Shown here piece by piece: positions 1-25,372 of a stretch of DNA of 25,702 nt (position 1 is its first letter; the number at the start of each line of letters is the position of its first letter). A program made the translations under genes and the position numbers. Location: IMG/VR virus record IMGVR_UViG_3300030613_000030, positions 1 through 25,702 of that record, one strand, 5' to 3'. The notes beneath the pieces were generated by a model, which saw only the letters and a list, made by a program, of their open reading frames with translations, was not told the DNA's origin and made no database searches. The stretch is from a virus (taxonomy: Duplodnaviria; Caudoviricetes).

Positions 1-408
1 GAGCGACAGGACTGGCTCGTCTGGCTGGTCCACGCAGTTGGCGGCCCGGCGTTGGCCGAGTACCTGCGCGTCCGAGACCTGGCCGAGGCCGAGTACAACC
101 GCGTCCAGGGCCCGGCTGAGGCCGAGTACCAGCGCACCAAGGGCCTGGCGTGGGCCAAGTACCTGCGCGTCCGAGACCTGGCCGAGGCCGAGTACGAGCG
201 CGTCAAGGGCCCGGCGTTGGCCGAGTACGAGCGCACCAGGGGCCCGGCTCTGGCCGAGTACTACCGCGTCACGGGCCCGGCGTGGGCCGAGTACTACCGC
301 GTCGCGGACCTGGCGAGGGCCGAGTATGAGCGCGTCCAGGGCCTGGCGGCCAAGAAGGCGCTGACTTGGAAGCGAGTCCTGAAGGCTATCCAGAAGAAGG
401 GAAACTAG
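1..408 (+). CDS. 11-residue (hendecad) tandem-repeat protein, 5' end outside the window
   Basis: Frame 1 is open from base 1 (ERQDWLVWLVHAVGGPAL...). It contains nine AEYxRVxGPAx units and stops at TAG 406-408. Confidence 0.85.
   Translation, partial: ERQDWLVWLVHAVGGPALAEYLRVRDLAEAEYNRVQGPAEAEYQRTKGLAWAKYLRVRDLAEAEYERVKGPALAEYERTRGPALAEYYRVTGPAWAEYYRVADLARAEYERVQGLAAKKALTWKRVLKAIQKKGN
55..351 (+). repeat. Coding tandem array of 9 x 33 bp (consensus GCCGAGTACnnnCGCGTCnnGGGCCCGGCGtnG)
   Basis: GCCGAGTA (once GCCAAGTA) recurs every 33 bp. Units 1 and 4 are near-identical. Confidence 0.95.
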
Positions 409-1050: not shown

Positions 1051-1659
1051 ATGAAGACCTACCTAGGCAATGACGCACCGCTGCCGAACAACGACTGCAA
1101 GCCGCACGCTATCGACATCGTAGTGCACTTGGGTCGCGAGGGCCGCTTCGGTGGCTGGGGCGACAAGACGTGGACCGTGCTGCACCATTCGATGCTCACC
1201 TCGATGCTGTGGATGGCCGCCTACGGAACTCGCGGCATGCACTACGCCCTACTTCACGACGGGCATGAGTACCTCCTAGGGGACACACCGTCGCCAGTGA
1301 AGGCATTCCTAGGCAAGGTTGAGGTTAAGTCGTTTGAGGATATGCTCGACACTCGCATCCGCGCTCTGCTTGGTGGAATTCCTGCGCCCACCGAGAACGA
1401 GCGAGCCAAGGTGAAGTGCGTCGACCTGGCGGCTCTCATCATCGAGGCCTACTACTTCGGCACCAAGGAGACCTTCGAGCACATCGCGGATGTGGACTGG
1501 GGAATCAACCTAGCCAAGACCGAGGAGGAGCAGAATCACATCCGATACATCATCGGAAATCTCTGCCCCGAGGTTGTCGAGGAGATGAATAGACCGAAGA
1601 CGATGAACGACTTGTTGCTCAAGAACAGCGAAAGACACTTCCATCGGCTCTACGCATGA
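1051..1659 (+). CDS. HD-domain phosphohydrolase (YfbR-like 5'-deoxynucleotidase family)
   Basis: Motifs RFGG..W.V.HHS, ALLHDGHEYLLGD.PSPVK and CVDLAAL.IEA. ATG 1051 is preceded by GAGGG. Confidence 0.85.
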   Translation: MKTYLGNDAPLPNNDCKPHAIDIVVHLGREGRFGGWGDKTWTVLHHSMLTSMLWMAAYGTRGMHYALLHDGHEYLLGDTPSPVKAFLGKVEVKSFEDMLDTRIRALLGGIPAPTENERAKVKCVDLAALIIEAYYFGTKETFEHIADVDWGINLAKTEEEQNHIRYIIGNLCPEVVEEMNRPKTMNDLLLKNSERHFHRLYA

Positions 1660-1696
1660 TCATCTTCCCTTGGCTGGGTGACGACGGAGACTGGAC

Positions 1697-1951
1697 ATGA
1701 CACGCACAGTCCTAACGACAAATTACGGCGAGGCCCACTTTCGACATACCGTCCGCATCGCAGCCGACTCGTCGCCTGAGGATGGCCAGCCAGGCTTCGT
1801 CGGGCTCGCTACCCTGGTTCAGACCTTGTCCCAGCAGATGGATTTAGTGCGGCACATTGGAGCCTGTCCGCAGTCGCTCCATTTCTTCTACGACAATGGC
1901 TCCTGGATTTTGGAGTCGACAACAATCATCCCGAGGCCGGTAGAGGCTTGA
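1697..1951 (+). CDS. Hypothetical protein, 84 aa
   Basis: GGAG RBS upstream of ATG 1697. It fills the gap in the + strand gene run. Confidence 0.7.
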   Translation: MTRTVLTTNYGEAHFRHTVRIAADSSPEDGQPGFVGLATLVQTLSQQMDLVRHIGACPQSLHFFYDNGSWILESTTIIPRPVEA

Positions 1952-1982
1952 CATCCAACCCGAATTAAGGTGCACTACAAAC
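1948..1982 (+). promoter_or_regulatory. Sigma70-type leaderless promoter
   Basis: TTGACA (1948-1953), 17 nt, TGCACT (1971-1976), 6 nt, ATG 1983, with no Shine-Dalgarno. Same geometry as the sites at 4917 and 8630. The -10 here is the weakest of the three. Confidence 0.7.
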
Positions 1983-3632
1983 ATGACCAAGACCAAGAGC
2001 AGCGAGAAGGTTACCAAGGAGAGTTTGCTGGCCGAGTATGAGCGCGTCGAGGGCCCGGCGTGGGCCGAGTACAAGCGCGTCCGGGACCCGGCGTTGGCCG
2101 AGTACAAGCGCGTCGAGGGCCCGGCGTGGGACGAGTACGAGCGCGTCGAAGGCCCGGCTCTGGCCGAGTATGAGCGCACCAAGGGCCTGGCATGGGCCGA
2201 GTACCAGCGCGTCACGGGCCTGGCGTTGGCTGAGTACGAGCGCATCACGAGCCCGGCGTTGGCTGAGTACGAGCGCATCAAGGGCCCGGCGTGGGACGAG
2301 TACAAGCGCGTCCAGGGCCCGGCGTTGGCCGAGTACAAGCGCAAGCTCGCCCTGCCGCTCGTGTCCGAGCCAGTGGCGGATTGCTCACGAAGAGGTGTGC
2401 ACATGAAATCCTACTCGATGGTTCGTGAGCGTCCCGCCGACTCCGACGACTTCGTGGTCGTTCCCGACCTCGGTGGCGGGCAACGTGGCACCGGCAACAT
2501 GATCATTCACGGCGAGAACTCGCTCGTTCTCGCTGGTATCGCTGAGAGACTCAGAGGGGCCGTTCGCTGCATCTACATTGATCCGCCCTACAACAATCAG
2601 GAGCGCTACTTCCACTACGATGATGCGCGGTCTCACGAGGAGTGGATTGCCGACCTCAAGAGCCGCCTTGAGCAGCTTGCCCCGCTTCTCAGGGGGGACG
2701 GAAGCATCTGGATCTCCATAGACGACAGAGAGGTCCATTACCTGAAGGTCGCTGCTGATCAGGTCTTCGGTCGCGAGAACTTCGTCACGACGGTCATCTG
2801 GCAGCAGCGCACCACCCGTGAGAACCGTAGGGCGTTCTCGAACAACCATGAATACCTGCTCGTGTACGCGCGGGATGTGAAGCAGTTTCGCGACTCTCGA
2901 AACCCGCTTCCCACGACGGCAGAAGTGCTGAGCCGCTACAAGAACCCGGACGGTGACCCGCGCGGGCCATGGCAATCGGTCTCAGCCAATGTGCAGGGGG
3001 GGCACGGAACCGCATCGCAGTTCTACGTCCTTGTCGCGCCTAACGGCCGCAGGCACGAGCCGCCGAGGGGCCGATGCTGGATCTACACCGAGGAGCGGAT
3101 GAGCCGAGAGGTCCGCGAGAACAGGGTGTGGTTCGGTCGCGATGGCAATGGCGCTCCTAGGCTGAAGCGTTTCTTGACCGGCGCCGCTGGACTCACACCC
3201 GAGACTCTCTGGTTCGCGTCCGATGTGGGCACGAACGACTCAGCGAAGAAGCACCTCCTGAACCTGTTCCCCGACGCCGCGGTGTTCGAGACACCGAAAC
3301 CGGAGAACCTCATAGCTCGGGTTCTCCAGATAGCGACGAACGAGGGCGACTTGGTCCTCGACGCCTATCTTGGATCCGGCACCACGGCCGCAGTCGCGCA
3401 CAAGATGGGTCGGCGGTACGTCGGTATCGAGAGCGGCGCGCACGCCGTCACGCACTGTGCGACGCGGTTGCGCGCCGTCGTGAGCGGTGAGGCGGGAGGG
3501 ATCTCGGCGGCGGTCGGGTGGGTGGGTGGGCGCGGCTTCGACTTCTATCGAGTCGGCGAGCCCGTCCGCCTGAAGGCTGTGCCTGGGAGTGGCTTGCGTG
3601 GCCGTCACGGACGGCGCTCGACGCGACGCTAG
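1983..3632 (+). CDS. Fusion of hendecad-repeat protein (N-terminal ~124 aa) and beta-class amino (N6-A/N4-C) DNA methyltransferase
   Basis: Single open frame with 9.5 AEYxRVxGPA repeats followed by MTase motifs IYIDPPYN and VLDAYLGSGTTAAVAHKMGRRYVGIE. The fusion was created by the insertion at 2349-2355. Confidence 0.85.
   Translation: MTKTKSSEKVTKESLLAEYERVEGPAWAEYKRVRDPALAEYKRVEGPAWDEYERVEGPALAEYERTKGLAWAEYQRVTGLALAEYERITSPALAEYERIKGPAWDEYKRVQGPALAEYKRKLALPLVSEPVADCSRRGVHMKSYSMVRERPADSDDFVVVPDLGGGQRGTGNMIIHGENSLVLAGIAERLRGAVRCIYIDPPYNNQERYFHYDDARSHEEWIADLKSRLEQLAPLLRGDGSIWISIDDREVHYLKVAADQVFGRENFVTTVIWQQRTTRENRRAFSNNHEYLLVYARDVKQFRDSRNPLPTTAEVLSRYKNPDGDPRGPWQSVSANVQGGHGTASQFYVLVAPNGRRHEPPRGRCWIYTEERMSREVRENRVWFGRDGNGAPRLKRFLTGAAGLTPETLWFASDVGTNDSAKKHLLNLFPDAAVFETPKPENLIARVLQIATNEGDLVLDAYLGSGTTAAVAHKMGRRYVGIESGAHAVTHCATRLRAVVSGEAGGISAAVGWVGGRGFDFYRVGEPVRLKAVPGSGLRGRHGRRSTRR
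2031..2342 (+). repeat. Second coding tandem array, 9 full plus one partial 33-bp unit, same family as 55-351
   Basis: GCCGAGTA/GCTGAGTA/GACGAGTA recurs every 33 bp from 2031. The partial unit is at 2328-2342. Confidence 0.95.
2349..2355 (+). repeat. Left copy of 7-bp direct repeat GCCCTGC
   Basis: Read directly. It lies just after the last repeat unit, in frame as GCC CTG C. Confidence 0.75.
2403..3632 (+). CDS. Site-specific DNA methyltransferase, beta class (type III Mod-like architecture), native start
   Basis: GAGGTG RBS then ATG 2403, in frame with 1983. Motif order is DPPY (IV), target-recognition region, TPKPE, then the YLGSG SAM-binding motif (I). Confidence 0.85.
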   Translation: MKSYSMVRERPADSDDFVVVPDLGGGQRGTGNMIIHGENSLVLAGIAERLRGAVRCIYIDPPYNNQERYFHYDDARSHEEWIADLKSRLEQLAPLLRGDGSIWISIDDREVHYLKVAADQVFGRENFVTTVIWQQRTTRENRRAFSNNHEYLLVYARDVKQFRDSRNPLPTTAEVLSRYKNPDGDPRGPWQSVSANVQGGHGTASQFYVLVAPNGRRHEPPRGRCWIYTEERMSREVRENRVWFGRDGNGAPRLKRFLTGAAGLTPETLWFASDVGTNDSAKKHLLNLFPDAAVFETPKPENLIARVLQIATNEGDLVLDAYLGSGTTAAVAHKMGRRYVGIESGAHAVTHCATRLRAVVSGEAGGISAAVGWVGGRGFDFYRVGEPVRLKAVPGSGLRGRHGRRSTRR

Positions 3633-3652
3633 CCGCATGTCGGGACAGTCTC

Positions 3653-4405
3653 ATGGCGCGGCGGAGGACCCCAGTCGGCGCGCGGGCGCGGGTACTCATC
3701 GACGGCGAGTTCGGCCTCCTGGTGGGCGCCGTGCTCGAGGAGTTCGAGCGCAAGACGCACCTGGTCGAGTGGAAGTACGACCCGCGCTTCCGCACGGTGG
3801 AGGCATGGGACTTCGGCTTCCGCCGCCCGGCCGTCCTCTGGGCGCAGCACCTGCCGGAGGGGACGTCCATCCCGGGGCGCGGAGCCGCTCCTCGCGGCGG
3901 CGCCTACGTCCTCTTCGACGAGCTCGTCCGCGACAACGTCACCACCGAGGTGGCGGCGCTGGAAGCGAAGCAGCGCGGCTACCGGGTTGAAAGGATCTAC
4001 TGCGACCCGGCCGGCGACGGGACGCAGTCGGCGAACGGGCTGTCGGACGTCTCGGTGCTGAAGAGCACGCGGTGCGGCGCAGGTGGCCCGCAGGTCCGGT
4101 TCACGACGGAGCCTCGGCTCCGCCACATCCCGTTTGGCGTCTCGCTCCTTCGCGGGATGCTGCGCAACGCCCTCGGCGAGACGCGGCTGTGGGTGGCGAA
4201 GTCGCTCGACAAGCCGAAGCAGGCGCGCGGGGTCGTCAAGGACTTCGAGGGCTACGCCTATCCCGAGGCCAAGGACGGCCGGCCGGTGGGCGACGTGCCG
4301 CTCAAGGACGGCCTGCACGATCACGTCGTAGACGCCTGTCGCTACTTCGCCATCGGCGAGCACGTCGCGACCGGCCAGCTCGTCGAGTCGCACCAGGTCC
4401 GCTGA
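3653..4405 (+). pseudogene. terL: 5'-truncated phage terminase large subunit: C-terminal RNase H-like nuclease domain only, still an open 250-aa frame
   Basis: Linker VLIDGEFG..GAV.EEF followed by AWDFGF, LFDE, IYCDPAG and KDGLHDHVVDACRY motifs typical of TerL nuclease domains. There is no Walker A/B ATPase region upstream. Confidence 0.8.
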
Positions 4406-4413
4406 GAGGTCCC

Positions 4414-4791
4414 ATGGCCCAGGTCTCCGCAGCGCCCATCGACATGGCGGCGGCCGCGGCACTCGATCGCCTGTGGGCCCAGGCCGAGGAGGCCGACCTC
4501 GAGAGCTTCCCGGTGGTCCTGCTCGACCTGCCGGCGCACGTCGCCCTGAGGCTCGACGTCCGGCGGGTGAGCCGGGTCATGTTCCGGGTCGTCGCCGGGC
4601 TGCGGCCGCGCGGTCTGCCGCTCTGGTGGGTGCGGGAGAAGTTCCAGGCCATGGGCCTGCCGGTGCCGATCGCCGAGGCCATCGAGCGCCACTTCTCGCA
4701 CCACAGGCTCTGCCGCCTCAGCGGCGGCGAGTTCCGCGCCATCGTCGCCCCAGGCGACTGGACCCGCCTAGCCGCGGAGAAGGCCTCCTGA
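4414..4791 (+). CDS. Hypothetical protein, 125 aa (gene that followed terL in the donor)
   Basis: GAGAGGT RBS and ATG 4414. Strong GC3 codon pattern like the terL fragment. Confidence 0.7.
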   Translation: MAQVSAAPIDMAAAAALDRLWAQAEEADLESFPVVLLDLPAHVALRLDVRRVSRVMFRVVAGLRPRGLPLWWVREKFQAMGLPVPIAEAIERHFSHHRLCRLSGGEFRAIVAPGDWTRLAAEKAS

Positions 4792-4913
4792 TGACGCCGT
4801 TCAACTTCACCGGCGGAAAGGAAGCCGCCGCGGGGGAGACTGACGGTGCGCGAGGTCCTCGTACCCCGCCAGGCGGCATCGGCCAGTTCGTTCCTGCCCT
4901 GCTCGACGAGTAG
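4791..4913 (+). pseudogene. Chimeric 40-aa remnant: start of a donor gene (possibly portal) ending in the displaced ALLDE-stop of the repeat gene
   Basis: TGATG coupling at 4789-4793 and an in-frame GCC CTG CTC GAC GAG TAG end. Portal identity is inferred only from its position after terL. Confidence 0.45.
4896..4902 (+). repeat. Right copy of 7-bp direct repeat GCCCTGC
   Basis: Read directly. It is followed by TC GAC GAG TAG and then the next promoter. Confidence 0.75.
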
Positions 4914-4916
4914 GAC

Positions 4917-4951
4917 TTGACATCCTCCCATAGCTCTGGTACACTGTTTAT
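4917..4951 (+). promoter_or_regulatory. Sigma70-type leaderless promoter
   Basis: TTGACA (4917-4922), 17 nt, TG-g-TACACT (4940-4945), 6 nt, ATG 4952. Confidence 0.85.
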
Positions 4952-5224
4952 ATGACCCGAGTCAACATCCGCGCCATCTTGGCAGACCCAGACATACGCA
5001 GGAGACTCATGGCCGACTCAGTTATTGCCCTCCAGGCTCGCGAAGAGGTCATGACGACCCAGGTGCAGGCCGAGGCTGCCTACGACAAGGTTCGAGCAGA
5101 GCGTCTGCTGTTGACCTCCAAGTCGAAGAAGAAGGCGCTCGTCCCCGGCGTCGAGGCGGTGGTCGAGTACGCCACCGAGGACAACTCCGGCGGCGAGAGG
5201 CCTATCTCCCTGGTGAAGTCGTGA
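4952..5224 (+). CDS. Hypothetical helical protein, 90 aa
   Basis: ATG directly at the predicted transcription start. The stop overlaps the next GTG (GTGA). Confidence 0.8.
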   Translation: MTRVNIRAILADPDIRRRLMADSVIALQAREEVMTTQVQAEAAYDKVRAERLLLTSKSKKKALVPGVEAVVEYATEDNSGGERPISLVKS

Positions 5225-5310
5225 CCCGCCGCGAAATCGTCCGAGGCTGTCTCTTCCACCTCGCCCTCTTTCTAGCCATTGTTCTCGGCCTTCTTTCCAG
5301 GTCCCTGTGA
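5221..5310 (+). CDS. 29-aa single-pass membrane peptide (not in ORF track)
   Basis: MTRREIVRGCLFHLALFLAIVLGLLSRSL. GTGA overlaps at both ends (5221-5224 and 5307-5310). Confidence 0.7.
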   Translation: MTRREIVRGCLFHLALFLAIVLGLLSRSL

Positions 5311-5657
5311 CCAACCATCTCGTAGCCAGGCTTGCTGCCAAGTCACAGCACAAGAACCATCAGCACGTGGCTATCGTCACCCGCGGCGGGGCTGTGGTGT
5401 CGGTGGGCTACAATGGCGGTCCCAATGGATGCGTACATGCTGAGGCTATGGCCTTGGGGAAGCTCTGGCCATCAGAGCGAGTCGGCACCAAGCTGCACTC
5501 CATCAGGCTCATGAAGAGCGGCAGGATGGGGCTGGCCAAGCCGTGCCCCGAGTGCCAGAAGCTCATCGAGGAGAGCGGCGTCAAGGCGGTCTTCTACTCA
5601 GACAATTGCGGCAACATGGTCCACATCAAAGTGGCGCGCAAGCAGGGTTCGTGCTAG
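5307..5657 (+). CDS. Zn-dependent cytidine/dCMP deaminase-fold protein
   Basis: VSVGYN, HAE and KPCPEC motifs, and C-terminal GVKAVFYS. Confidence 0.85.
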   Translation: MTNHLVARLAAKSQHKNHQHVAIVTRGGAVVSVGYNGGPNGCVHAEAMALGKLWPSERVGTKLHSIRLMKSGRMGLAKPCPECQKLIEESGVKAVFYSDNCGNMVHIKVARKQGSC

Positions 5658-5663
5658 TATAAT
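5632..5663 (+). promoter_or_regulatory. Extended -10 promoter candidate
   Basis: CGTGCTAGTATAATG at 5650-5664 (TGnTAGTAT overlapping TATAAT) upstream of AGGAG and ATG 5700. A 14/15 match occurs at 6985-6999. Confidence 0.6.
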
Positions 5664-5699
5664 GGTAGCGAGATTTCAACCCGAACCAGGAGAAGAATC

Positions 5700-5948
5700 A
5701 TGAAGACCAAGTGGCCGCACGAGTCGAAGGGACAGAACAAGCATAACGCAGGTGTGCACTTCGAGTATACGGTCCACCAGGACCTCCGCGCTCAGCGTCA
5801 GGCTGAGGCGAAGATTCGTCAGGAGGTCACTGCGGCTGAGCCGGTCGCGCAGCGGCTAGCTCGCCTGGACCGGATTCTCGGTGCCGGCGTCGGTGCCAAG
5901 AAGGAGCGAGCCCGGCTCGCTAAGATGGTTGTTGCGGTGACGCCGTGA
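5700..5948 (+). CDS. Hypothetical basic protein, 82 aa
   Basis: AGGAG RBS. Basic helical C-terminus QRLARLDRILGAGVGAKKERARL. Confidence 0.8.
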   Translation: MKTKWPHESKGQNKHNAGVHFEYTVHQDLRAQRQAEAKIRQEVTAAEPVAQRLARLDRILGAGVGAKKERARLAKMVVAVTP

Positions 5949-6109
5949 ACTACTCCCTCTCCGTCTTCATGGGCCTGCTGGCGCTCGCCAACATGTCGGT
6001 GGTCTTTAGTGACGAGCCGAGCGAGCGATACAACCATGTCGCCGCTAGGATTGCTCACTTCCTCGGCGCCGCCCTCTTCGCTCTAGCCGCCTACCAGCTT
6101 TGGCCGTGA
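5945..6109 (+). CDS. 54-aa two-helix membrane protein (not in ORF track)
   Basis: MNYSLSVFMGLLALANMSVVFSDEPSERYNHVAARIAHFLGAALFALAAYQLWP. GTGA overlaps at 5945-5948 and 6106-6109. Confidence 0.7.
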   Translation: MNYSLSVFMGLLALANMSVVFSDEPSERYNHVAARIAHFLGAALFALAAYQLWP

Positions 6110-6969
6110 GCGAGGCTTGGCAGGACGCCCCGAAGGCGCTAGTGTTGGTGGATTTCTCCGCTATAGCATACTCATGTTGGGCCTCAGCCGAAAGGGCCGA
6201 GGCTCAAGGTAAGCTACGCTGGACCGAGCACATCTCCGTATGTGAGTTCTGCATGAACGGAGAGAAGTGTCCGAACCCTCCGCCGAAGCAGTACGACCCT
6301 CACGAAGTGCTGAAGACTAACCTCCGACTCAAGCTGATGACCCTCGTTGAGGCCCTCTCCGTAAGTGGCATTGAGGCGTTGGTGATGGTTCTGGATTCGC
6401 ACTGTCAGTGGAGGTACGACATTTTCCCAGGCTACAAGGGCAAGCGAGACCCGAACCGATTCAACCCGCGACCCGAGGCCGAAGCCTACCTGCGCGAGGC
6501 CTATCCGAACATGAAGTGGTTCACCGCGCCTGGTCACGAGGCTGATGACGCCCTAGCTACGCTGGTGCGCATCAACAAAGGTAAGGTACCTATCATCGTG
6601 GTAACGGGAGATAAGGACCTGTGGCAATTGTTCGACTCTCCGTCCGTCCGTATTTTCAACCCCGTCACCCAAGAGTTCCTGGGCGCCGAGAAGGTGGCTG
6701 AGAAGTTTTGGGGCTTAGACCGACAGCACATCCGAGCGTTGAAAGCACTCTACGGCGACTCATCAGACAGCCTACCGAACTGCGCGCCTCGAACTCAAAA
6801 GCAGCTAGTGCCGCTCATCCGTGAAGCTGGTGGCGACCTCATGAAAACTATTGAGCTAGCTAAGAGTCGAGTTAATGAGACCTGCTTTGGTCACCTGGAA
6901 AAGAATCTCGACCAGATAGTCGTCAACTGGATGCTGGCTGGACTGCGAGACGATGTCGAGTTGATGTAG
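6106..6969 (+). CDS. 5'-3' exonuclease / flap endonuclease (Pol I N-terminal, T5 D15-like)
   Basis: Motifs LVD, WR..FPGYKGKR, EADD, TGDKDLWQL and GDSSD. GTG 6106 is chosen because of the GTGA coupling (ORF track starts at 6100). Confidence 0.9.
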   Translation: MSEAWQDAPKALVLVDFSAIAYSCWASAERAEAQGKLRWTEHISVCEFCMNGEKCPNPPPKQYDPHEVLKTNLRLKLMTLVEALSVSGIEALVMVLDSHCQWRYDIFPGYKGKRDPNRFNPRPEAEAYLREAYPNMKWFTAPGHEADDALATLVRINKGKVPIIVVTGDKDLWQLFDSPSVRIFNPVTQEFLGAEKVAEKFWGLDRQHIRALKALYGDSSDSLPNCAPRTQKQLVPLIREAGGDLMKTIELAKSRVNETCFGHLEKNLDQIVVNWMLAGLRDDVELM

Positions 6970-6995
6970 CAGTAGCCGACCTACCGTGCTAGTAT
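6967..6995 (+). promoter_or_regulatory. Extended -10 promoter candidate
   Basis: TAGCAG, 17 nt, TAGTAT, with CGTGC directly before the -10. Near-identical to the 5650 site. Confidence 0.5.
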
Positions 6996-7011
6996 GATGT
7001 CAGGAGAGGCC

Positions 7012-7437
7012 ATGTTCGGAGCGGCGGACGAGATTCGACACACAGACAAGGATACGGGCGCCCAGAAGTGCATGAAACTGGCTCGCCTGGACCTCATTCC
7101 ACCAATCCCACTGTGGGAGTTGGGTGAACATTTCGGCAAAGGCTCTCAGAAATACTCTGATAATAACTGGCGCAAGGGATATTCTTGGAGTATCAGTTAC
7201 GCAGCGCTTCAGAGACACCTACAGCTTTTCTGGGCGGGCGAAGAGATGGACGACTGTAAGCCCGGCTGCCCCACAGACTGCAAGAATCACACGCACTCAC
7301 CACATATCATCGCCGCTGCGTGGCACTGCTTCGTTCTGCGTGAGTTCATGATTTTGCATCCAGGCAAGGATGACCGCTTTAAAGCCACTCTAGACGCCTT
7401 TCAGAAAATGATGACCACACCACCACAGGGGAAGTGA
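7012..7437 (+). CDS. dATP/dGTP diphosphohydrolase-domain protein (DUF5664-like)
   Basis: Pattern K.AR.DLIP...GSQKY...NWRKG.SWS..YAALQRHL..FW.GE..D...H...AAW. AGGAGAGG RBS before ATG 7012 (alternative start 6994). Confidence 0.8.
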   Translation: MFGAADEIRHTDKDTGAQKCMKLARLDLIPPIPLWELGEHFGKGSQKYSDNNWRKGYSWSISYAALQRHLQLFWAGEEMDDCKPGCPTDCKNHTHSPHIIAAAWHCFVLREFMILHPGKDDRFKATLDAFQKMMTTPPQGK

Positions 7438-7438
7438 C

Positions 7439-7768
7439 ATGAGGCCTACCGAAATGATGCGCGTCGCCCATAAGTACCTCACCCAGTTGGCAACTAGCTC
7501 ACAGACACCCTGGAAGACTCAGGTTAACGAGGTTCTGCCTGGGGCGGCACAGGATATCCAGCGAGAGTCCATCAAGCCGGTTGCGCTGTTCTGGCAGAAG
7601 ACCGTAGCGCCCAAGGGAATCTCGAAGGCACTATGCGACCGCGCCGTGGACCGAGCGCTAAATTCTTCGAAGCCAGTCTCCTTCGATACATTGACCCCGT
7701 CCGAGCGCACCTACGTACTGGCGGTGCTAGGCGAGGTTCGAGGCTGGGCCACCGCTCAGGTCGCCTAA
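7439..7768 (+). CDS. Hypothetical protein, 109 aa
   Basis: ATG 1 nt after the upstream stop, with GGGGA upstream. Confidence 0.7.
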   Translation: MRPTEMMRVAHKYLTQLATSSQTPWKTQVNEVLPGAAQDIQRESIKPVALFWQKTVAPKGISKALCDRAVDRALNSSKPVSFDTLTPSERTYVLAVLGEVRGWATAQVA

Positions 7769-7776
7769 GGAGCCAG

Positions 7777-8067
7777 ATGCGCATCCGCACGCTAGCCAAG
7801 ACCTTCGTCACCTTGAATATTGCGGACGCCCTGCTGACAGCGTGGGCGATTCACACTGGTGGCGGCGAGGTACAGGAAGGTCTCCCTGTCATGGCCCTGC
7901 TAGTCTCACAGGGCCTTGGCTGGTTCTTGGCGGTCAAGATTCTAGTAGGAACGCTGCTAGCTTTCTATTGCTGGAGATTTTACCACCAGAGAGAGCTAAA
8001 GCTAGGCATCTTGTTGCTGGTCGCAGTGTTGACTTGGAATGTACTTCGACTATGGGTACACCTCTAG
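7777..8067 (+). CDS. Small multi-pass membrane protein (DUF5658-like), possible holin
   Basis: TAAGGAG RBS, LN.AD.LLT...E.LP.M...F..K pattern and three hydrophobic segments. The holin role is only inferred from its position next to the endolysin. Confidence 0.65.
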   Translation: MRIRTLAKTFVTLNIADALLTAWAIHTGGGEVQEGLPVMALLVSQGLGWFLAVKILVGTLLAFYCWRFYHQRELKLGILLLVAVLTWNVLRLWVHL

Positions 8068-8621
8068 AACCGCTTCAAAAAGGCCAGGCACGTCCTGCAA
8101 GGCGTTTGGACCGTGCAGTTAGCCCGGACTAGCCACCCTTCAAGAAACCCATTGGAGGCTGGCCTGCTGGCCACAATGCTCTCGTAGAAGTCGACCAGGG
8201 CCTGCCGTAGGTTCTCGATGAAGAGCGGTACGGGCATGGCTACAATCGCCGCAACGGTTTTGGGTCCCATAACGCCATCATCTGCTACGCAAGCAGCGCG
8301 CTGAGCTAGGATAGTTGCTCGGCGCACGCCACAATTTACGGCAACGTCCAGAACCTTGGTCGCTACCAACTGACCAAACTTGTCGCAGTTCATCGGTGCC
8401 CAGTAATTCTTTTCGTAGAGAGCGCAGGCTTCGCCCTGGGTCAACATCGCGATGTCACCGTGGGTGATTAGGTGTCCCAGGAAGGCTGCTAGAGCGGGGC
8501 CGGTAACGCCCCACTTCGTAATTCCGCCCGGGTCATTGAGCCTATCATTTAGCCCCCCATTCGAGTCACCACCGACTTCATGACAGAGGACCGTGCGAAG
8601 AGCTTCGATACAATTAGACAT
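8064..8621 (-). CDS. Endolysin, glycoside hydrolase family 108 with C-terminal peptidoglycan-binding region
   Basis: HEVGG...NDPGGITKWGVT, Y..NYW, D.AVNCG, DGVMGPKT and FL.GWL.R motifs. Confidence 0.9.
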   Translation of the reverse strand: MSNCIEALRTVLCHEVGGDSNGGLNDRLNDPGGITKWGVTGPALAAFLGHLITHGDIAMLTQGEACALYEKNYWAPMNCDKFGQLVATKVLDVAVNCGVRRATILAQRAACVADDGVMGPKTVAAIVAMPVPLFIENLRQALVDFYESIVASRPASNGFLEGWLVRANCTVQTPCRTCLAFLKRF

Positions 8622-8664: not shown

Positions 8665-9024
8665 ATGAAGACCGCCCTCCTGCTCGCCGCCCTCCTGCTG
8701 CCTGCCCTCGCTTTCGCGGAGGACAATCGGACATGGACCAGGTTCGATACCGCCATGGAGGCTACGACTGCGGTCACCCTAGCTCTCGACTGGAACCAGA
8801 CCATCCGTATCGCAGCGGCGGGACGAGAAATCAACCCCTACCTAGGCCCGCACCCCGCTCGCCACACGGTTAACACCTATTTCGCATCCTGTATCGTTCT
8901 ACACGCCGCAGTCGCCTACGCTCTTCCCAAGCCCTACCGAACCATCTGGCAGGGGGTCTTCATCATGGTGGAGGCCAAGGTAGTTCGCGACAACATCCGA
9001 CTCGGGTGGGGAATCAAGTTTTAG
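8665..9024 (+). CDS. Exported/membrane protein with signal peptide, 119 aa
   Basis: Signal peptide MKTALLLAALLLPALAFA, DW.QT...E.NP.LG.HP motif, and a C-terminus ending GWGIKF. Confidence 0.8.
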   Translation: MKTALLLAALLLPALAFAEDNRTWTRFDTAMEATTAVTLALDWNQTIRIAAAGREINPYLGPHPARHTVNTYFASCIVLHAAVAYALPKPYRTIWQGVFIMVEAKVVRDNIRLGWGIKF

Positions 9025-11516
9025 TTGTCGAGTTGCACCCATGAAGCGCCGGTCCATCCTAAGAAGTGGTGGGTATTCGTGTCGTAATAAATGTCGCCCT
9101 CCAAAGGGGTTGAAGGCGCGACGTTAGGTCCTACGTGAATGGCAGCCTTTGTCGCGTTACCATGCGCCACTAGCCCATATCCAGTGCCACCCACCGAGTC
9201 GGCGAGGACAGCGGTTCCGCTGCCGATGCACGTAGCGTGCACGGCGCCGCCGGAAGCGGTCCCGACGGCATCAACACCGATACCTCCAGCGCCTCCACCA
9301 CTAGCGCTAACACCTGTTCCACCACCAGCGCCGCCGACGCCGTTGACGCCGACACCGGTCCCAGCGCCGCCTGAACCGTAAACGCCAGATCCGTTTGTAG
9401 CTCCGCCAACGCCGAAGACGCCGACGCCTGAGGCGCCGCCCCCCTCACCTCTTACCCCTGTACCACCACCGGCGCCACCGATGCCATAGACGCCTCTACT
9501 GCTACCGCTACCGGCACCGACAACTCCGTCGCCTCCACCAGCGCCGCCAGTACCAGAGACACCTACCGCGCCAGCCGTGGCGCCACCGGTGCCGGAGACA
9601 CCCGAGCCGGTAAGAACTCCTTGTCCTTGTACGCCACCACCACCAGCAGCGCCGCCAGTACCAGAGACACCTACCGCGCCAGCAGTGGCGCCGCCAGTGC
9701 CGTTGACGCCAGCGCCCGTAAGAACCCCTTGTCCTCGTACGCCACCACCACCAGCAGCGCCGCCAGTACCAGAGACACCTACCGCGCCAGCCGTGGCGCC
9801 ACCGAGGCCTACGACACCAGAGCCGATTCCGTCACCCACTCCTTGGACTCCGTAGCGGCCCGCAGTACCCCACCCCTGAACCCCGTCGCCACCACCAGCG
9901 CCGCCAGTACCAGTAATACCTGGCGCTCCTGCGGTAGCTCCGCCAGTACCAGAGACACCCGGGTATGCAAGCGTTCCTTGTCCGGTAACTCCATCGCCAC
10001 CACCGGCGCCGCCAGTGCCAGAGACGCCTCGCGCGCCAGCAGTGGCGCCACCGGTGCCGGAGACACCAGAGCCGGTTCCATTGCCACTGCTGGTCACACC
10101 AACCCCGTTAACGACGCTATTGCTGCTGACAACTCCTTGGTTGACCTGAAGCGAACCAAGAATGGTGGCGAGAATAGCAGCAACTCCGATACTGACTGAT
10201 GTGGTCGTGGCGGTGGTACCAAGGTTCATCGCGCCAGCGACAAAGCGCTGCACACCGTTAGCTACGCACTCATCAGCAGCATTGGTCACAATCACAACCG
10301 GATTGGCTGGTGCCGGAACGTAAGTGTGGTTCAACTGCACGATACCCATAGACGTGTTGGTGGCCGGGATTCCTGGCGCATTCACTTGGGTAGAAGTATT
10401 GCCCACATAAACGGTGGCGCCGTAGCGCCAAGCCAGAATGTAGCGCGAGCCCGGCGTGGCTGGCACTAGAGCAGCTAGGGCTGAGCGCTGGACTTTAGTA
10501 GCCGCGATAACAGCGTTGGCGGTTCGATTCAACTCGACGTAAATCACGTCGCCGTCAGCCATGTCGGTTAGGCCAGGTGACGCGATAACTTGGTCCGCAA
10601 CAGTGTTGAATGTCGCCGTTGAGTTGCCGAAAATGAAGCTCAGACCCTGCCACGTTAGGTTACCGGCGTTCCAGTACCAGTTCTCGCCAGTCAGACCGAA
10701 CACTGCTGCTGGGTCATAAACCAGACGCACGGTACGGTCGTCCGAAGGGGCGTACCAGTGCTCACCGCCGCCTAGCTCCCATAGACGTTGGGCAATGGCA
10801 CGGTTGAAGTCGGATTGACTGATGATGTCCTTGTCCCCGCCAGTGAATCCGCTGGTCGAAGTAGCCTCGTTGCGGTTGAGCCAAGCGTACTGAGCCAGAG
10901 CGCTAGGGGAAGAACCTCCCGTGCCTAGGCGCCAGAACATCTGTCGGCAGTCCGTAACGACGGCGACATTTCCGCCAGCATCAACGGTGACCTTGGCGAT
11001 AGGGCAAAGAGTGGGAGTGAGCCCAAAGTTCGAGGTGGAGATGTTGATTCGGTAGTTGAGAACCCTGCCTAGCGGAACCGTCTGCGTGAATTCTAGGTTA
11101 GTTGCGGCGTCACGGAAGACTACCGAGTCGTTGGTGGTTACGTCCGCGGTGCGAACTAGGTCAATGCTCACATAGTTAACTACACCCGGAGTGAACGAGC
11201 CCACCACATTCGGATTAGTGCCCACTAGGACGTCGTCGGGTTGGGTTGTCGGAACGGTGAAAATAGCTCCAGCCTCGGTCGCTGTGCCGTGTAGGAAAAC
11301 AGCGCTAGCCATACGCAGGATGAGGTTGGCTGCCGGGGCTCCGACCATGCCTACGTCCAGAATAGCTGCACCCCAGGCGACTAGCGCCTTAGTGCCGGTC
11401 ATGAGCGTGCCGGATAGCGCCTGAAAATCGTTGGCGACACAGGACTCGATGAGCCGTAGGGCGGGTACGTCTACACGCTGATTTCCTAGCCAGTTATACT
11501 GACGCTTGATAGCCAT
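9021..11516 (-). CDS. Tail fibre protein with long Gly-rich repeat shaft
   Basis: Last gene of the baseplate operon, with GAGG RBS. GVxGxG repeats over ~300 aa and a C-terminal PSTP.EGDIYYDT...F.GW.G.SW module. Confidence 0.75.
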   Translation of the reverse strand: MAIKRQYNWLGNQRVDVPALRLIESCVANDFQALSGTLMTGTKALVAWGAAILDVGMVGAPAANLILRMASAVFLHGTATEAGAIFTVPTTQPDDVLVGTNPNVVGSFTPGVVNYVSIDLVRTADVTTNDSVVFRDAATNLEFTQTVPLGRVLNYRINISTSNFGLTPTLCPIAKVTVDAGGNVAVVTDCRQMFWRLGTGGSSPSALAQYAWLNRNEATSTSGFTGGDKDIISQSDFNRAIAQRLWELGGGEHWYAPSDDRTVRLVYDPAAVFGLTGENWYWNAGNLTWQGLSFIFGNSTATFNTVADQVIASPGLTDMADGDVIYVELNRTANAVIAATKVQRSALAALVPATPGSRYILAWRYGATVYVGNTSTQVNAPGIPATNTSMGIVQLNHTYVPAPANPVVIVTNAADECVANGVQRFVAGAMNLGTTATTTSVSIGVAAILATILGSLQVNQGVVSSNSVVNGVGVTSSGNGTGSGVSGTGGATAGARGVSGTGGAGGGDGVTGQGTLAYPGVSGTGGATAGAPGITGTGGAGGGDGVQGWGTAGRYGVQGVGDGIGSGVVGLGGATAGAVGVSGTGGAAGGGGVRGQGVLTGAGVNGTGGATAGAVGVSGTGGAAGGGGVQGQGVLTGSGVSGTGGATAGAVGVSGTGGAGGGDGVVGAGSGSSRGVYGIGGAGGGTGVRGEGGGASGVGVFGVGGATNGSGVYGSGGAGTGVGVNGVGGAGGGTGVSASGGGAGGIGVDAVGTASGGAVHATCIGSGTAVLADSVGGTGYGLVAHGNATKAAIHVGPNVAPSTPLEGDIYYDTNTHHFLGWTGASWVQLDN
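9230..10110 (-). repeat. Gly-rich coding repeats with a 108-bp (36-aa) super-period
   Basis: GCGCCGCCAGT(A/G)CCAG recurs at 9541, 9649 and 9757 (108 apart), and at 9898 and 10006 (108 apart). Confidence 0.85.
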
Positions 11517-15350: not shown

Positions 15351-18300
15351 CTATGCTCCGATAAAGCTGACGAGCACATCGTTTGAGGGGTCCAAAATCA
15401 ATGCCTTCTCATGAGGCTGTACCGGGATAGTATCGGCGCTCGTGGTAGCTACGGGGCTCAACATGACCACTGAGGTGACTCCGTCGACTTCACGAACAGC
15501 GGCACTGACAGAAGAGATGTCAATAGGACCCGGAGTGGCCGAGTTGACTACCTTAGCGACAGCCGCTTGAACGCGGGCCACCACGTCGACAGCGCCTGAG
15601 CGTGCTCGAATAGCTAGCGAAACGATGATGCGGCGAATAAGTGGAGCCGACACGTCTATAGCTGCGCCAGCCGAGGCAACACCGGGGTAGGTGACAACGT
15701 CTCGCTCGTCGCCGTAGATAACCCGAGTGACCTCGGCGATGAGACCCGTATTGTAGCGGTAACCGTCTTGGCCCGGTACAAGGGTGGTCGGGAACGATAG
15801 CTTGTCTTGTAGTGTCAGTACCGACCCTGCCACAGCAGAGAAGTGCTCTGCGTTGACTACCGGCAGCAGGCCTAGGACCGTCTGCCCAACGTGCAGGTCG
15901 TCGGTTACTACGGAGCGTACGTTATAGAGCATTCGAGACGGTTTTTCTGCGAGCACGGTTACTAGTGGTAGCGAAGTGCCTAGCGCGCCAGAGACCCAGG
16001 AGGCGCCTCCTTCGATAGTGAACTTGGTGCGATTGTACAGGTCAACAGACAAAACCTTGTAGTTTCCTTGCGGGGCCGTGCCCAGAACTGCCGACGAAAC
16101 TCGTAGCGAATCGTTAGGTAGTACGGAATTGTAGGTGTAAAAAGCAACGTACCCGTAGTCGTGCAGACCTGGCTGGGCGTTGGGCGCCTCAACCATCAGC
16201 CGCTCAGTGCTGACGTTCAGCAGGCGGAACGTACCAATATTGCCGGCGGGAGCAGCTAGCAGACTGGAGTCATACTTGTCGGTGGCTGTAGATGCCACAC
16301 CCGCAGTCGAAGTGCTCTCAGAGACGATGACTTCACTGCCTGAAACTAGCAGGGCTGGTGCATACAGATGGGGGTTGATGGTGGCGGAAGCAAAACCCCA
16401 GGTGCCGGTGGTGGTGGTGAAGACTTCTACCGAGCGCTGAGCTAGAATGGCTGGCGCACCAACGCTCGGTAGGGCGGCGAGTCCACCCCATACGATGGCT
16501 AAGCCGTTCGGAATTGCTGCTCCGGAGGCAGCCGAGCGAGGAATCTGCATAGAACTCGCAGCAACAACGGTATTGGTCGAGGTGTCGTAAATCTCGCAGG
16601 TAGCCTTGGGGTTGGTCCATGTGTTAGCATCCACAGACGCTTCAGCGGTCGAGCCGCCAGCCACCAAGAAGGAGGCCGGAGACAATGCCACTACTGCGTG
16701 GCCGATGCGCGTGGCTCCAGCATCAATCCCGAAAGCGGTGTCTGCCATCCAGACAACGGCTGGGAGCGAGAAGGTCTCATATCCAGTGCCAGCACCACCA
16801 GCGCCACCGATAACTAGCAACTGGTCAGAGCCGTAGGCTTGGGCATGATGCCCACCACGCGCGTGAGCCATAGTCGGTCCAGCAACACAAGCGGAGGCAT
16901 CTAGGTTATAGATGTCCAGGGTGTTGGTGAACGTGGTTGCGGTAGTGGCTCCGCCCACTACCAACACTTCGCCTGTCGACATGACGGTCATCGTATGGTG
17001 CGAGCGAGCGACGTTCAATGTGGCCACACCGACAGCGGTCCAGAGGTTTGTGGAGGGGTCGTACACATAAGCGTCGGTGTGCCAAGCCAGGGCACCCGTC
17101 GAAAGGCCGCCCGCAAAGAGAACTTTGCCGGAAGCTAGCTTGACTGCCGCGCCGAAAGCCCTAGCCGCAGGCAGTACAGCCATCGCAGCCCACGAATCGG
17201 TGCTAGGCGTGTAGGCTTCAACAGCGTTGCTAGCCGCGCCTGTGGCCAAGTTGTGTCTATCCAGCCCGCCAATAGCCAGGACGCGACCATCGTTCAGGGT
17301 GACATACGAAGCGCCGACCACGGCCACAGTTCTGGCTCCAGCAACCTTCCACTTGCCGAGTCCTGGCTCAAAGTGCACCCAAGCTCCGCTGCCAGTCAAG
17401 GTGGGGGCATTGATAGCTGGATAGACCGTTTGGAACTTGCCGGCATTGTCCCAGAGCCACTGTGTCCCGAAACTGGGGTCGACAGGGAACGTCCAAGCTG
17501 AGCCAGCTACGCCGACAGTAACTACGCCCGTTGCGGCGGTCAAAGTAGTTGCGGCGGTCCAGTCTAGAATCTTAGGAAGGGCTACAGCATTGTCGAGGAT
17601 AGCGTAGGCGCGATTCGAGATGGTCTCGATGTTGTCGGTAGTGACGACCGAGGCTGAAATAGCTGTTCCCGAGTTAACTCCCTGTAGAACAGTGAAGCGG
17701 ACGTCGTTAGCAGTGCCGCCAGCTACTTGGACCGCTCCAAGTGAACCTAAGGTGCCAGTAGCAAGCTGCACCCGGTGACCGCTCGAAGAAGCCTGGATTG
17801 AGGCGCCGGTCGAGGCTAGTCCGGTGACCTGACCACGATTCAGGTAATCGGCTACGTTCTTGGAGGTCGTAGGGGCTAGGCGGAACTCTTCGTTAGCCCA
17901 GTCATTGGGGACGGCAGCAAGGGTTGCGTCGGGAGCGAGCTTTAGGGTGATGTCGTAATTAAGGACGCCCACGTTGTAGGCCGCGGAGGAAATATGTAGA
18001 GTGCTGTCGGCGATGATAGCCTGAAGAAGGGTGCCATCCACCTGTGAAATGACGCCGGTGCCGGGGCCACCAGCCAAAGTGGCGGTGACAGAGGAGGTTG
18101 CCAGAGCGTTAATAGCGGCTAGGACCGCATTCGTGGTGTTGGCGGTGAGAGGGTAGAATGACAGGTCCGTTGCGGCGACGACAGTCTTCCAGGCGGAGGT
18201 TAATGTGGTAGCTGCAAACTCGACCCAGTAGAGCGGGGTAGCGACCGGAATTGCGGTAACGCGCAGACGTGACACAGAGTCACTTAGAGCATCAACGACA

Positions 18301-21300
18301 GTCCAGTAAGCGGTGGAGGAAGCGGGCAGGGAAAGTAGGTCACCAACAACGGCACCAGTGAAATCTGTGGGGGTGGCTTGCTTGGAAACATAGGCACCAA
18401 CCACGCTACCACCAACAGCAGCGCCAGCCTCGGTATAGGTGAAGGTGTCGTTCGTGAAGATGGTGGTTGCGACGCCAACAATGGTCTTGAGACCGGAAGG
18501 GAAGTTGACGTCAGTCGTGTTGACATAGACCACGCCGGCTGGAGCGAGGTAGCTGCTAGTAACGGTAGCGGTCGGCTGGGTCAGAGTGACAGTGACCGTG
18601 GCTCCAGCCCGAACAATAGAGGTGAGCGCAAAGGCTGACACAAGGGTTGTTGCTGTCCCAGCGCCTGACTGAGCCATCAGCAACCCGTCACCGACAGTGA
18701 AGGTAATGGCTCTGGCAGCGCCGGAGGCGAGGTAGACCGATACGTCGCCTAGAGGTAGAACGTTCTTGACGCTCAGGGTGGCTGAAGCTGTCAAGGGCGC
18801 ACGCAAGGTCATGTGCTGGGTGTCGTCGCGGCCACACCAGGACTTTAGTCGGAGAAGTAGAGTATCAGTGCTGCCAGGCTGAGTCGCTGACAGGTCGAAG
18901 CGGCTTCGTCCGTGCGCGTGCAGGGCGAAGTTCGAGAAATCGAAGGTCGTACCAAAGGCTGACGCCAAGGACTGGGGTACGCCACCTACGAGATTGTCAC
19001 CATCAGTCAAGCGCAAGCTAGCTCCGTACGGAACCGCTGCGTCTACCTTGAGCCATCGGGTCATCGGGACCGTGTAACCCTTGGTGACTGGGTCGCTGTC
19101 GAAGACCACGCTCAAAGAAGAGAGAGGACCGACACGGAAGCGAGAGGTAATCGCCATCAGGTCGATTGCGGGGCGGGCTGGGGCCAGGAGGTGGTCGAGA
19201 ACCGGATTGGTGGCGGCAGTAGAGGTCCACTCGGCCTTATCGCCAGCATTGGTTCCCCAACTGGGGACGGTAACGGTAGGCTTAGAGAGTAGCCAGAGAG
19301 CGCCTTCGATAAATCCGCTCTTGGCCCGAGACACGTTGGCTAGGGTGCTGCCGATGGTTAGCGGAGGTGTGAAGGACGCTACGGCGAAGCTCTCGACGGT
19401 GTTAGGGGTGCCGATTTCAGAGTTACCAGATTGGACAGCCGCCGCCTCAGGCTCGTCGCTTTGGATAGCAGAACCCACCAAGAAGCCGAGCGTACTGGCC
19501 GCGGATAGGTCCTGGGCAGACAAGGCGATGTCGCCTGTGGAGGCGTAGGTGTTCGTGGTGAGGCGCAGATGCGAAGTTTGGATGGAAGCGGTTGCTCCAA
19601 TCGGCAGGATAGCTGCGACAAGCTGAGCCTGGGTGTAGACCCCCGCGGCTAGACCAATTTGCTGAGGCACCGCAATCGTCCGAACGAAGTATAGCCGGTT
19701 GAAGACCGATTTGGTGGGGTCGTTGAGGCTGTTGCCAGCGCCGGCAGTTGCGTAGTCGCACTTGAACCACGTTCCGGCCGGGTCAACGCTCGATACTCGC
19801 ATCATCGAGTAGGTGACTGGGGCGCCACCAAATCCGCCCCAAGCGTCTTGAGACCAGATAGCCATATCGCCAACCTGTACGTTGGTGAAGCAGGGCACGA
19901 ATGCAGCCCCGCTCCAAGCCCAGAAGGCACGGTCAGTAGCGGTCCAATACTGGTGGACTTGATGGGAAGCGTTCAGAGTGTGGGGTACGGCTACTGCTGT
20001 GCCATCGACCGTCAACCACAGGTTGAGGCCGCCAACTGGCACGGTGACGGTGGCCCCGAGGGAAATCGACTGGATATACCCGCGAGTGAAGGACGTTCCA
20101 GCGGTTAGCTTGTCACCAGCCACTAGCGCATATGTCAAATCAATCTGGCCCCGATTGCGGTCCAGGACGTAATCAGCACCGCGTCCTTGAGCAGTCAACG
20201 CTAGAGCATTGAAGAGGCCTTTGATGGACATGGAGCAGGACGGGTCGATAGAGACGCTGGCACGGACAGAGAGACCTAGATTCGAGGTGAAAACCAGGCC
20301 ACCGCCCGAAACGGTGCAGGTGACCCCAGGAACCTTTGCATTGAAGATGGACGCCCAGGCAGACAGCGGTAGGGTAGAGGTTAGGGTCGCATAGCCGAGG
20401 CCTAGAGCGATAGCGTCCGCATCGGTGAAGGTGTAGGTGCTGTAGGGAGTACCGTCGACCGAAACGATTAGTGTCTCTCCCGAGACCATTGAGGTCCACA
20501 GTGTTTGGTCGTTGGACGCCAGCGAAGCTATCTGGCCATCCTTCGAGAGGAGGTAGTCGTTCTTGTAGAGGCGAAGAGCGTCCACTCGCCCACCCGGGAA
20601 TAGCAAAGCGAGGTTGGCATCGGTGCCAGCAGGGGTCGCTATGACCTCGATATCGTCGTTAACGTTGGCCTTCGCGAAGATAGCCACGTAGGTACCCGCA
20701 CCAGTAGTGCGAGCGGAGAAGGGAATTACAGGATTCGAGTTGATGCTGGCCGTGACTTCGTAGGCGGTGGCGTTGGTGATGTCGCCGAAGCTGCCGACAA
20801 CGAAGGTGTGCGTATAGGTGACGCCGCCAACCTTCACGGTCAGAGTAGCCTGGTCTGATAGGGCGTAGGGGGCAGCCTGTACCGTGAGTAGGCTGGCCTT
20901 AGCAACCGGCTGGCCGTGATTCAGGAAGAAAATGTCCTCTCCGCCAACAGCCGAGTCCATAACGACCTCGTAGGCGATTCCAGAGTCCTTAGCTTCGTAC
21001 CCGGTTCCGTCGTCGATGACCAGCAAGGAGGGCAGGGTAGAGCGATTAACGTACTGCGAAGAAATGACTGTGGCAGATTCGTCTGGCGCCTTGACGCCAT
21101 ACGAAAACACGTTGAGGCCTAGAGTGGTGCCAACTCCATATCGAGAGCGTCGAGCAGCTTTGATGCGCTCGCGGTAGAGGTCGTCGTTTTCAACGTCTTG
21201 ACCATTGGTGATAGGGAGGGGATTGGTTACAGCCAGGCCCGCGAAAGCGGGTGAGGTAACCACTTTGATGCCGGCAGCGGAAGCGTTGCCGTCTGCACCC

Positions 21301-22019: not shown

Positions 22020-22066
22020 GAGCACAGTCCAATTATGAAGGGGGCGCTACAGGAGCCTGCTCCACC

Positions 22067-22074
22067 TAGATTAC
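22067..22074 (-). promoter_or_regulatory. Candidate late-promoter motif GTAATCTA
   Basis: Overlaps the HNH stop codon, ~48 nt upstream of the baseplate J start. Confidence 0.4.
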
Positions 22075-25183: not shown

Positions 25184-25372
25184 CTAGGTAACGGTGCCAG
25201 TACCCGTGCCGCCGCCAGCGGGGCAGGTGGTCGCGACGTTAACTACGCCCTGAGTCTGGATGTGGAGGACGATAGCGTTAGCGAGTTTCTCAAATGCCTT
25301 GCGGCGCTGTTTGTTCGTAACGCCGCCGATGGCGATGAGAATTTCCTGAGCAAGCTGGTCTCCGTTCATCAT
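25184..25372 (-). CDS. Small baseplate/spike-associated protein, 62 aa
   Basis: ATGA coupling to the upstream HNH stop. Helical N-terminus and a GGGTGTGTVT C-terminus. Function is inferred from context. Confidence 0.65.
   Translation of the reverse strand: MMNGDQLAQEILIAIGGVTNKQRRKAFEKLANAIVLHIQTQGVVNVATTCPAGGGTGTGTVT

Follow-up and report, generated by a model that had tools for sequence, protein, structure and literature searches.

We analysed a 25,702-bp stretch of viral DNA (IMG/VR record IMGVR_UViG_3300030613_000030, positions 1 to 25,702; hereafter the window), in which a 2547-bp insert lies between two direct copies of the 7-bp sequence GCCCTGC (plus strand, 2349..2355 and 4896..4902) and interrupts a phage repeat gene. 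The insert and its 7-bp repeat are confirmed to be real. The insert is a patchwork of two donor segments, one with an intact DNA methyltransferase (MTase) gene, MTase2, and one with broken packaging genes of a GC-rich phage family, with internal junctions at about 3674 (J1) and 4815 (J2). Based on the order of these pieces, we favour, with moderate confidence, a route in which a second, smaller phage or its decayed prophage supplied a 2547-bp circle, or a head-to-tail concatemer of that circle, and a single recombination at a 7-mer common to both joined it to the large phage. The evidence describes one event in one population. The source is a large, uncultured soil virus of bacteria, for which the record is about 18% complete (CheckV) and the whole phage about 140 kb.

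GCCCTGC by itself is not rare (8 found in the window versus 6.4 expected), so the weight of the repeat comes from what its collapse gives. The interrupted gene (1983..2355, plus strand) consists of about ten repeats of 33 nucleotides (nt) or 11 amino acids (aa), and its displaced last codons and stop (4903..4913, plus strand) match L002, a metagenomic relative of the same lineage, exactly. Joining the two copies, as the initial annotation had proposed for these positions, restores a stand-alone 127-aa repeat protein ending in KRKLALLDE and a stop, followed by GAC and then by the next promoter (TTGACA-17-TACACT). This is a natural ending: the collapsed site (2306-2355 plus 4903-4922) matches L002 exactly over 70 bp, the repeat genes of L003 and L004 share the same ending, and that of L046 ends RKLALLDKKEQP. 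Both the repeat positions and the restored protein, with its stop 3 nt before the promoter, hold as first described.

Beyond the collapsed site, L002 carries a different promoter tail and another gene, so its locus is a paralog. The empty site is thus readable, as had been claimed, as a natural site in relatives, but the empty junctions found in reads and relatives belong to paralogous repeat genes and not to this locus. A search for the empty junction gave no match in IMG/VR and eight loci in metagenome contigs, four of which (L001-L004) are of this lineage and paralogous. The other four look like chance matches and were set aside. An orthologous empty allele was not found in IMG/VR via the HD gene or the 90-aa downstream gene, neither flanking gene having relatives.

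The first donor segment begins with sequence from upstream of MTase2 (2356..2402, plus strand), which carries a putative Shine-Dalgarno-like motif (GAGG) and no stop in the repeat-gene frame. MTase2 itself (2403..3632, plus strand) is an intact N6/N4 DNA methyltransferase of 409 aa (PF01555) with DPPY and GSGTT motifs, 92% identical to the stand-alone protein P0001, which has the same start, and 76% identical to its counterpart in Anaeromyxobacter sp. SG64. A further 42 bp (3633..3674, plus strand) end at J1, whose position is approximate and set by the start of homology to virus record L010 at 3675. We rejected decay of MTase2, as it has 3 changes at conserved columns compared to a median of 4 among 120 homologs, and one private change, G377R. 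The repeat gene is now fused in frame to MTase2 in a 549-aa open reading frame (ORF), which the initial annotation had missed, as it had missed the composite nature of the insert. Both in-frame fusions are within chance and are not used as evidence.

The second donor segment (3675-4815) is 78% identical in DNA to L010 over 1150 columns. It holds the C-terminal half of a terminase large subunit gene, terL (3675..4405, plus strand; PHROG 2; 79% aa identity to L010), which starts at about residue 208 of 452 and has no ATPase motifs. There follow a 125-aa gene (4414..4791, plus strand; 62% aa identity to its L010 counterpart; no Pfam or PHROG family), which separates terL from portal in the donor's phage family, and the first 8 codons of the donor portal gene (4791..4815, plus strand), cut at J2, where L010 homology ends. 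The L010 gene at the end of this block is a probable portal gene, being 38-39% identical to the L011 and L012 genes that weakly match portal family phrog_533 (E 1e-4 to 5e-4). At J2, the bases GGCG (4812-4815) would be shared between the joined pieces. At third codon positions the GC content rises from 0.77 in the MTase to 0.93-0.95 in the terL block. An MTase, a partial terL and a GC-rich gene had been read as host or prophage DNA; they come from two donor segments with two internal junctions and not from one contiguous host stretch.

The last 83 bp of the insert (4813..4895, minus strand) are quite probably the 5′ remnant of a second methyltransferase gene of D12 class, MTase1, cut just before its RPIHYLGSK motif. 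Relatives of MTase2 are the third gene of a cassette of restriction-modification (R-M) type, in which a PLD-like nuclease and the D12 MTase accompany the N6/N4 MTase (for example L017, 1351-5164, of G001). This cassette is widespread across phyla in tandem or divergent arrangement, and an MTase1 motif was found beside MTase2 in 25 of 31 related loci (12 divergent, 13 tandem; not found in 6). The PLD-like nucleases of L017 and L018 lie below the Pfam cut-off, and for the L017 nuclease PADLOC gave no restriction-enzyme match and only a weak PbeA match. MTase1 proteins begin with 20-40 loose residues followed by [FLW]RP[IV]HYLGSK, and the minus strand of the window reads ...HRQSPPRRLPFR, its character changing where portal homology stops. 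We scored every six-frame position of the insert against MTase1 starts, anchored at the end, with P0130, P0133, P0134 and P0135 as references. Of 4956 positions, the minus-strand frame that ends at 4813 came first with these four closest starts; its rank was between 1 and 30 over 15 settings, and 4, 29, 8 and 30 when each reference was used singly. When ten references were used it fell to rank 20, and a neighbouring frame, which ends at 4814, came second; for the 4813 frame, 20 distant references gave rank 176 of 5004. Position 4813, where this top frame ends, is also where the loss of portal homology independently places the boundary. In a re-closed circle the motif spacing would be about 318 nt; it is 244-387 nt in the 10 divergent loci measured.

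A number of points weigh against the MTase1 assignment, which rests on about 20 poorly conserved codons. The four references are kin, they were paired to four close MTase2 matches by equal contig size only, with orientation not seen, and the length and gap settings of the first scoring were chosen after inspection. Local alignments of the 83 bp to MTase1 were not significant (p 0.09-0.98), and a 40-aa database search with the remnant found nothing. Back-translated DNA profiles performed no better than controls, of which 14 of 120 and 46 of 120 scored as high, and profiles with no retained 7-mer bases scored no worse than those with seven, so a donor 7-mer is not discriminated. Moreover, the spacing in the re-closed circle is about 14-17 nt shorter than we estimated, by our own count, for the closest relatives, and two 73%-identical myxococcal MTase2 genes have no adjacent MTase1.

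If the last 83 bp are MTase1, divergent from and adjacent to MTase2, the right end (MTase1 start) and the left end (spacer and MTase2) of the insert would have been neighbours in the donor. When a circle integrates by one crossover, its contents end up permuted and flanked by two copies of a short sequence, and the arrangement seen here accordingly suggests a circle or concatemer integrated by a single crossover in 7 bp of microhomology. The donor order would have been terL, the 125-aa gene and portal, then a stretch deleted at J2, then MTase1 in reverse and MTase2, closed back into terL at J1. In the proposed sequence of events, a decayed prophage lost the portal-to-MTase1 stretch at J2 through the shared GGCG. 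During infection, a 2.5-kb fragment closed at J1 and then crossed into the phage; this crossover would have opened the circle between the divergent MTase genes, doubled the 7-mer and left a phage promoter upstream of the complete MTase2 gene, in sense orientation. The same sequence is expected from a concatemer, or from a cointegrate with the whole phage that was trimmed later.

A prophage in the Archangium metagenome-assembled genome G001 offers an analogy. Its order is terL, portal, protease, capsid, tape measure, tail, endolysin, nuclease, MTase1 (minus), MTase2 (plus), with an integrase about 10 kb further on, so that the cassette is prophage cargo behind the lysis genes and the circle order equals the prophage order with two deletions. 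Its terL is of a different type from that of the insert, and it is not the donor. Against the circle stand three negative results: the terL type of the insert occurred in none of 368 genomes of the class of G001, and in the donor-type phage loci examined, which are fragments, we found neither cassette genes nor an integrase. The earlier proposal of a recent capture by 7-bp microhomology, with the cargo in sense behind a phage promoter, agrees with our data in these respects, but the arrangement points to a circle and not to a linear piece. The event is recent, is now better resolved than in that first reading, and is a clear instance of a known event class, with an unusual proposed intermediate.

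Five sequencing runs contain the region, of which we examined four (X1-X4) as Logan contigs; X1 and X2 both derive from the source sample. Depth in X1 is even, with no jump between the left flank (8.78), the inside of the insert (9.34 and 9.73) and the right flank (9.33). At a threshold of 31 letters, X1 record 8 (4294-8210) and X2 record 13 (4831-5078) span the right junction. At the left junction, X1 record 6 and X2 record 11 run across, but both begin at 2326, 30 letters before the first base of the insert and thus one letter short of the threshold, because the assembly graph branches there into insert and paralog ends. J1 is bridged by X1 record 6 and by record 19 of X3, which comes from a different sample and study, dated to the same year and possibly part of one campaign, and contains identical flank and insert pieces. 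The 549-aa fusion is also on record (P0121; JGI/IMG, ENA) on a 44,262-bp contig that may be from the same sample.

These data bear on the possibility that assembly or amplification joined a repeat-rich phage contig to unrelated DNA. Such a chimera would fit the position of the left junction behind a multicopy repeat (depth 119-220) and its short crossing in both runs, as well as the fact that no listed piece covers the whole insert, that X1 and X2 are not separate samples, and that the X3 pieces among the rows listed do not cross the outer junctions. Nevertheless, equal depth inside and outside, a right junction bridged in two runs, identical pieces in another sample and study, including the one across J1, and the return of both ends to the same 7-mer, rebuilding a natural 70-bp site, make a chimera very unlikely.

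Two candidate signals of an insert-free form were also evaluated. X1 shows a loose end behind 2355 and a joint to 4898 whose side is 25 letters long. Since this side extends no further than 4922, the point of divergence of L002-type paralogs, and since X1 record 8 is unbroken over 4896-4926, we rejected these as the empty allele of this locus. In X4 (another study, 2025), depth exceeds 1 in 14 of 20 flank bins but in only 1 of 10 insert bins, which hints at a population without the insert; the cover is patchy, no contig joins the flanks, and the hint was not used. Rare alleles would stay invisible in contigs. A joint from 4902 back to 2356, as in a free circle, occurs in none of the Logan contigs listed, and no second copy of the insert was found in the phages collection (3 short MTase matches only). 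Separately, X1 has one extra base at 3684 compared to the window, X2 and X3, and L010 agrees with X1. Through the missing base, a polymorphism or an assembly error, the nuclease half of terL comes into frame with an ATG further upstream (3653), giving a 250-aa ORF (3653-4405).

Next, we considered how the two DNAs came to be joined. Beside the 7-mer, donor and target are identical at only 11 of 30 and 7 of 30 positions and no dyad arms are present, which argues against relaxed homologous recombination and a tyrosine integrase. Short-homology illegitimate recombination or microhomology end-joining, carried out by a host or phage enzyme, would fit the junctions. Exact matches of at least 7 nt between the circle and the empty window number 8176. 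This abundance makes a cut-and-fill step unneeded and speaks against a target-site duplication, in which a staggered cut in the phage would have been joined to an opened circle without GCCCTGC and then filled in. Such a duplication could account for the DNA profiles scoring no worse with no retained bases, and the MTase1 frame stays open in either version of the re-closed circle. However, there is no transposase and there are no inverted ends, and the insert ends are gene remnants and spacer rather than element ends; we consider a duplication rather unlikely.

A stepwise or linear patchwork would have the last 83 bp not be MTase1, with one composite fragment or several patched in by microhomology repair and the repeat arising from that repair. 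The local alignments, the 40-aa search and the DNA profiles give the MTase1 reading no independent support, and the lineage has another join at short homology (the 98-nt stretch of L001 and L003 described below, which begins at a 7-nt repeat-unit match). On the other hand, the top MTase1-like frame falls at a junction fixed by other evidence, and the patchwork needs the same 7-mer at both donor ends, or a duplication step, which leaves it unlikely. An off-target tyrosine recombinase acting in trans appears highly improbable. In this class 6-8 bp are duplicated, with a 7-bp overlap for lambda-type integrases, and inverted core binding sites surround the overlap of attachment (att) sites. Although the overlap length here is indeed 7 bp and a phage-derived circle could have met its own integrase, we found no dyad around the 7-mer (donor 3 of 12, target 1 of 12), the donor site lies in an MTase spacer and not in an att site, and the window contains no integrase (PF00589) or resolvase (PF00239).

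More generally, the insert had been described as recombinase-free, without transposase, integrase or terminal inverted repeats. None of its ORFs matches a Pfam or PHROG recombinase, and the 12 bases at its two ends agree as inverted repeats at only 3 of 12 positions. The description holds for the insert and the 25.7-kb contig, but reaches only the sequenced fraction of the phage (about 18%). With neither transposase nor integrase, neither inverted nor RNA-coding ends, and no match to Rfam across 1600-5700 (E up to 1), the insert does not resemble an insertion sequence, transposon or integrative element.

By analogy with the PeSL mini-circles of the T4-type phages RB49 and phi1, which also carry many promoter-cassette copies and, in the available part of that report, are proposed to gain genes through a small circle and one crossover without a dedicated recombinase (PMC2839356), the event works like a reverse PeSL reaction, yet is not one. 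There the report places the crossover inside a conserved cassette and has the phage's own ORFans shuffled (PMC2839356), whereas here repeated conserved cassettes are present, but the crossover falls on a 7-mer at the 3′ end of a coding sequence (4896-4902), 14 nt before the -35 box at 4917, and the circle is foreign and contains broken genes. Promoter-plus-start cassettes (TTGACA-17-TACACT, then ATG ACC) that resemble PeSL elements precede unrelated small genes in the window (1948-1998, 4917-4951) and in L002, L003, L004 and L046, and in Logan contigs other genes are joined at 1945, 1963, 1998 and 4914.

A phage orphan MTase derived from an R-M system likewise lacks its nuclease and resembles prophage or host R-M genes, and non-homologous recombination with a prophage is suggested in the accessible part of that paper. 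As far as that part goes, neither junctions nor an intermediate are read there, while the present case preserves both ends, the empty site and donor remnants that came along; the title of that paper claims protection, which for MTase2 would be a prediction. The insert agrees with such cases in holding an intact MTase whose relatives sit in nuclease-plus-MTase cassettes and in containing no cognate nuclease, for which it has no room, as all of its DNA is assigned. Rad52-like relaxed homologous recombination also involves gain from a prophage-like donor and, according to the portion of the report available, needs diverged extended homology (PMC3945230). Here no homology extends beyond 7 bp at either border, and DNA was inserted, not replaced. 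Gene flow from temperate to large virulent phages similarly involves a large acceptor, packaging genes among the transfers and an implicated role of illegitimate recombination, but those transfers are, in the text available, deduced in bulk from protein similarity (PMC8136500), compared to the base-level junctions that can be read here.

Whether phages acquire solitary genes from unrelated DNA by relaxed homologous or by illegitimate recombination is still debated, largely as junctions erode, to judge from the accessible parts of two reports (PMC3945230, PMC8136500). Here the empty site, both outer junctions and donor remnants are still readable, and they suggest circularisation followed by a single crossover within a few bases. 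A short direct repeat with permuted cargo is a signature that can be screened for in phage collections. While MTase capture by phages is known, we did not find the route of a permuted foreign circle entering a phage by microhomology described in the open-licence literature searched; most subscription papers lie beyond that search.

The only intact gene with a recognisable function, MTase2, lies 54 nt downstream of the crossover match that was used and stands in sense, with a promoter and a putative ribosome site. That promoter, a phage cassette at 1948..1976 (plus strand; TTGACA-17-TGCACT; near-identical cassettes in L002, L003, L004 and L046 by motif scan), is predicted to be active and probably drives the repeat gene and the captured MTase. 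MTase2 may possibly have been retained as an anti-restriction gene or by selection for methylation, a tentative proposal given a single event with junk DNA still present. Selection on the MTases of lactococcal phages offers a parallel, as far as the source was available (PMC4190342), and a myxophage preprint, in the part accessible, reports MTases and a full R-M system in some phages (10.64898/2026.09.14.751636). Relatives of MTase2 point, with moderate confidence, to a Myxococcota host, although this terL type was absent from the 368 genomes mentioned above. Compared to named phages, terL is at most 29% identical and the exonuclease at most about 32% among the best 10 of 120 matches, and neither assigns a host. 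The insert ties the ~140-kb phage to a cell also used by a second phage family, probably a myxobacterium.

By Pfam and PHROG, the window encodes baseplate, endolysin, exonuclease and nucleotide-metabolism genes. The relatives L001-L004 and L046 belong to the same lineage, in which repeated promoter cassettes precede small genes on the plus strand and a number of genes are built of 11-residue repeats. The next cassette behind the insert (4917..4945, plus strand; TTGACA-17-TACACT) was found once by motif scan compared to 0.3 expected; the window, L002, L003 and L004 have two cassettes each and L046 has three. The 11-residue repeat proteins (AEYERVxGPAW/L; window 1-408 and 1983-2355) are multicopy (depth 119-220 versus 9) and have interchangeable ends. 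They match no Pfam family, and Atlas places them in unnamed viral clusters only.

A gene next to the tail sheath in L001 (reverse 1-834) is identical over 98 nt to the repeat-gene 3′ end in L003 (reverse, about 5500-5605). This identity begins at AGGCCGA, a 7-mer of the repeat unit, and at the same locus in L004 most of the stretch is absent. The RKLALLDE end of the repeat genes may itself have been captured from this L001 gene. One could imagine that promoter-cassette arrays and repeat genes form a standing capture platform, in which phage-encoded end-joining or annealing circularises host or prophage fragments and integrates them via ~7 nt of homology downstream of strong promoters, but we regard this as quite unlikely. 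If true, it would have an integron-like function without integrase or att sites, and the 7-nt-bordered gain in L001/L003 would be another product.

Elsewhere in the window, two related endonuclease VII/HNH-like genes (22071-22688 and 25369-25695) lie among the baseplate genes; they are 85% alike over 116 nt and have relatives in L002 and L003. A baseplate J-like protein of 2224 aa (15351-22025) contains an inserted Kelch-repeat region, and a probable tail protein of 831 aa (9021-11516) carries 36-residue glycine-rich repeats with a 108-nt period.

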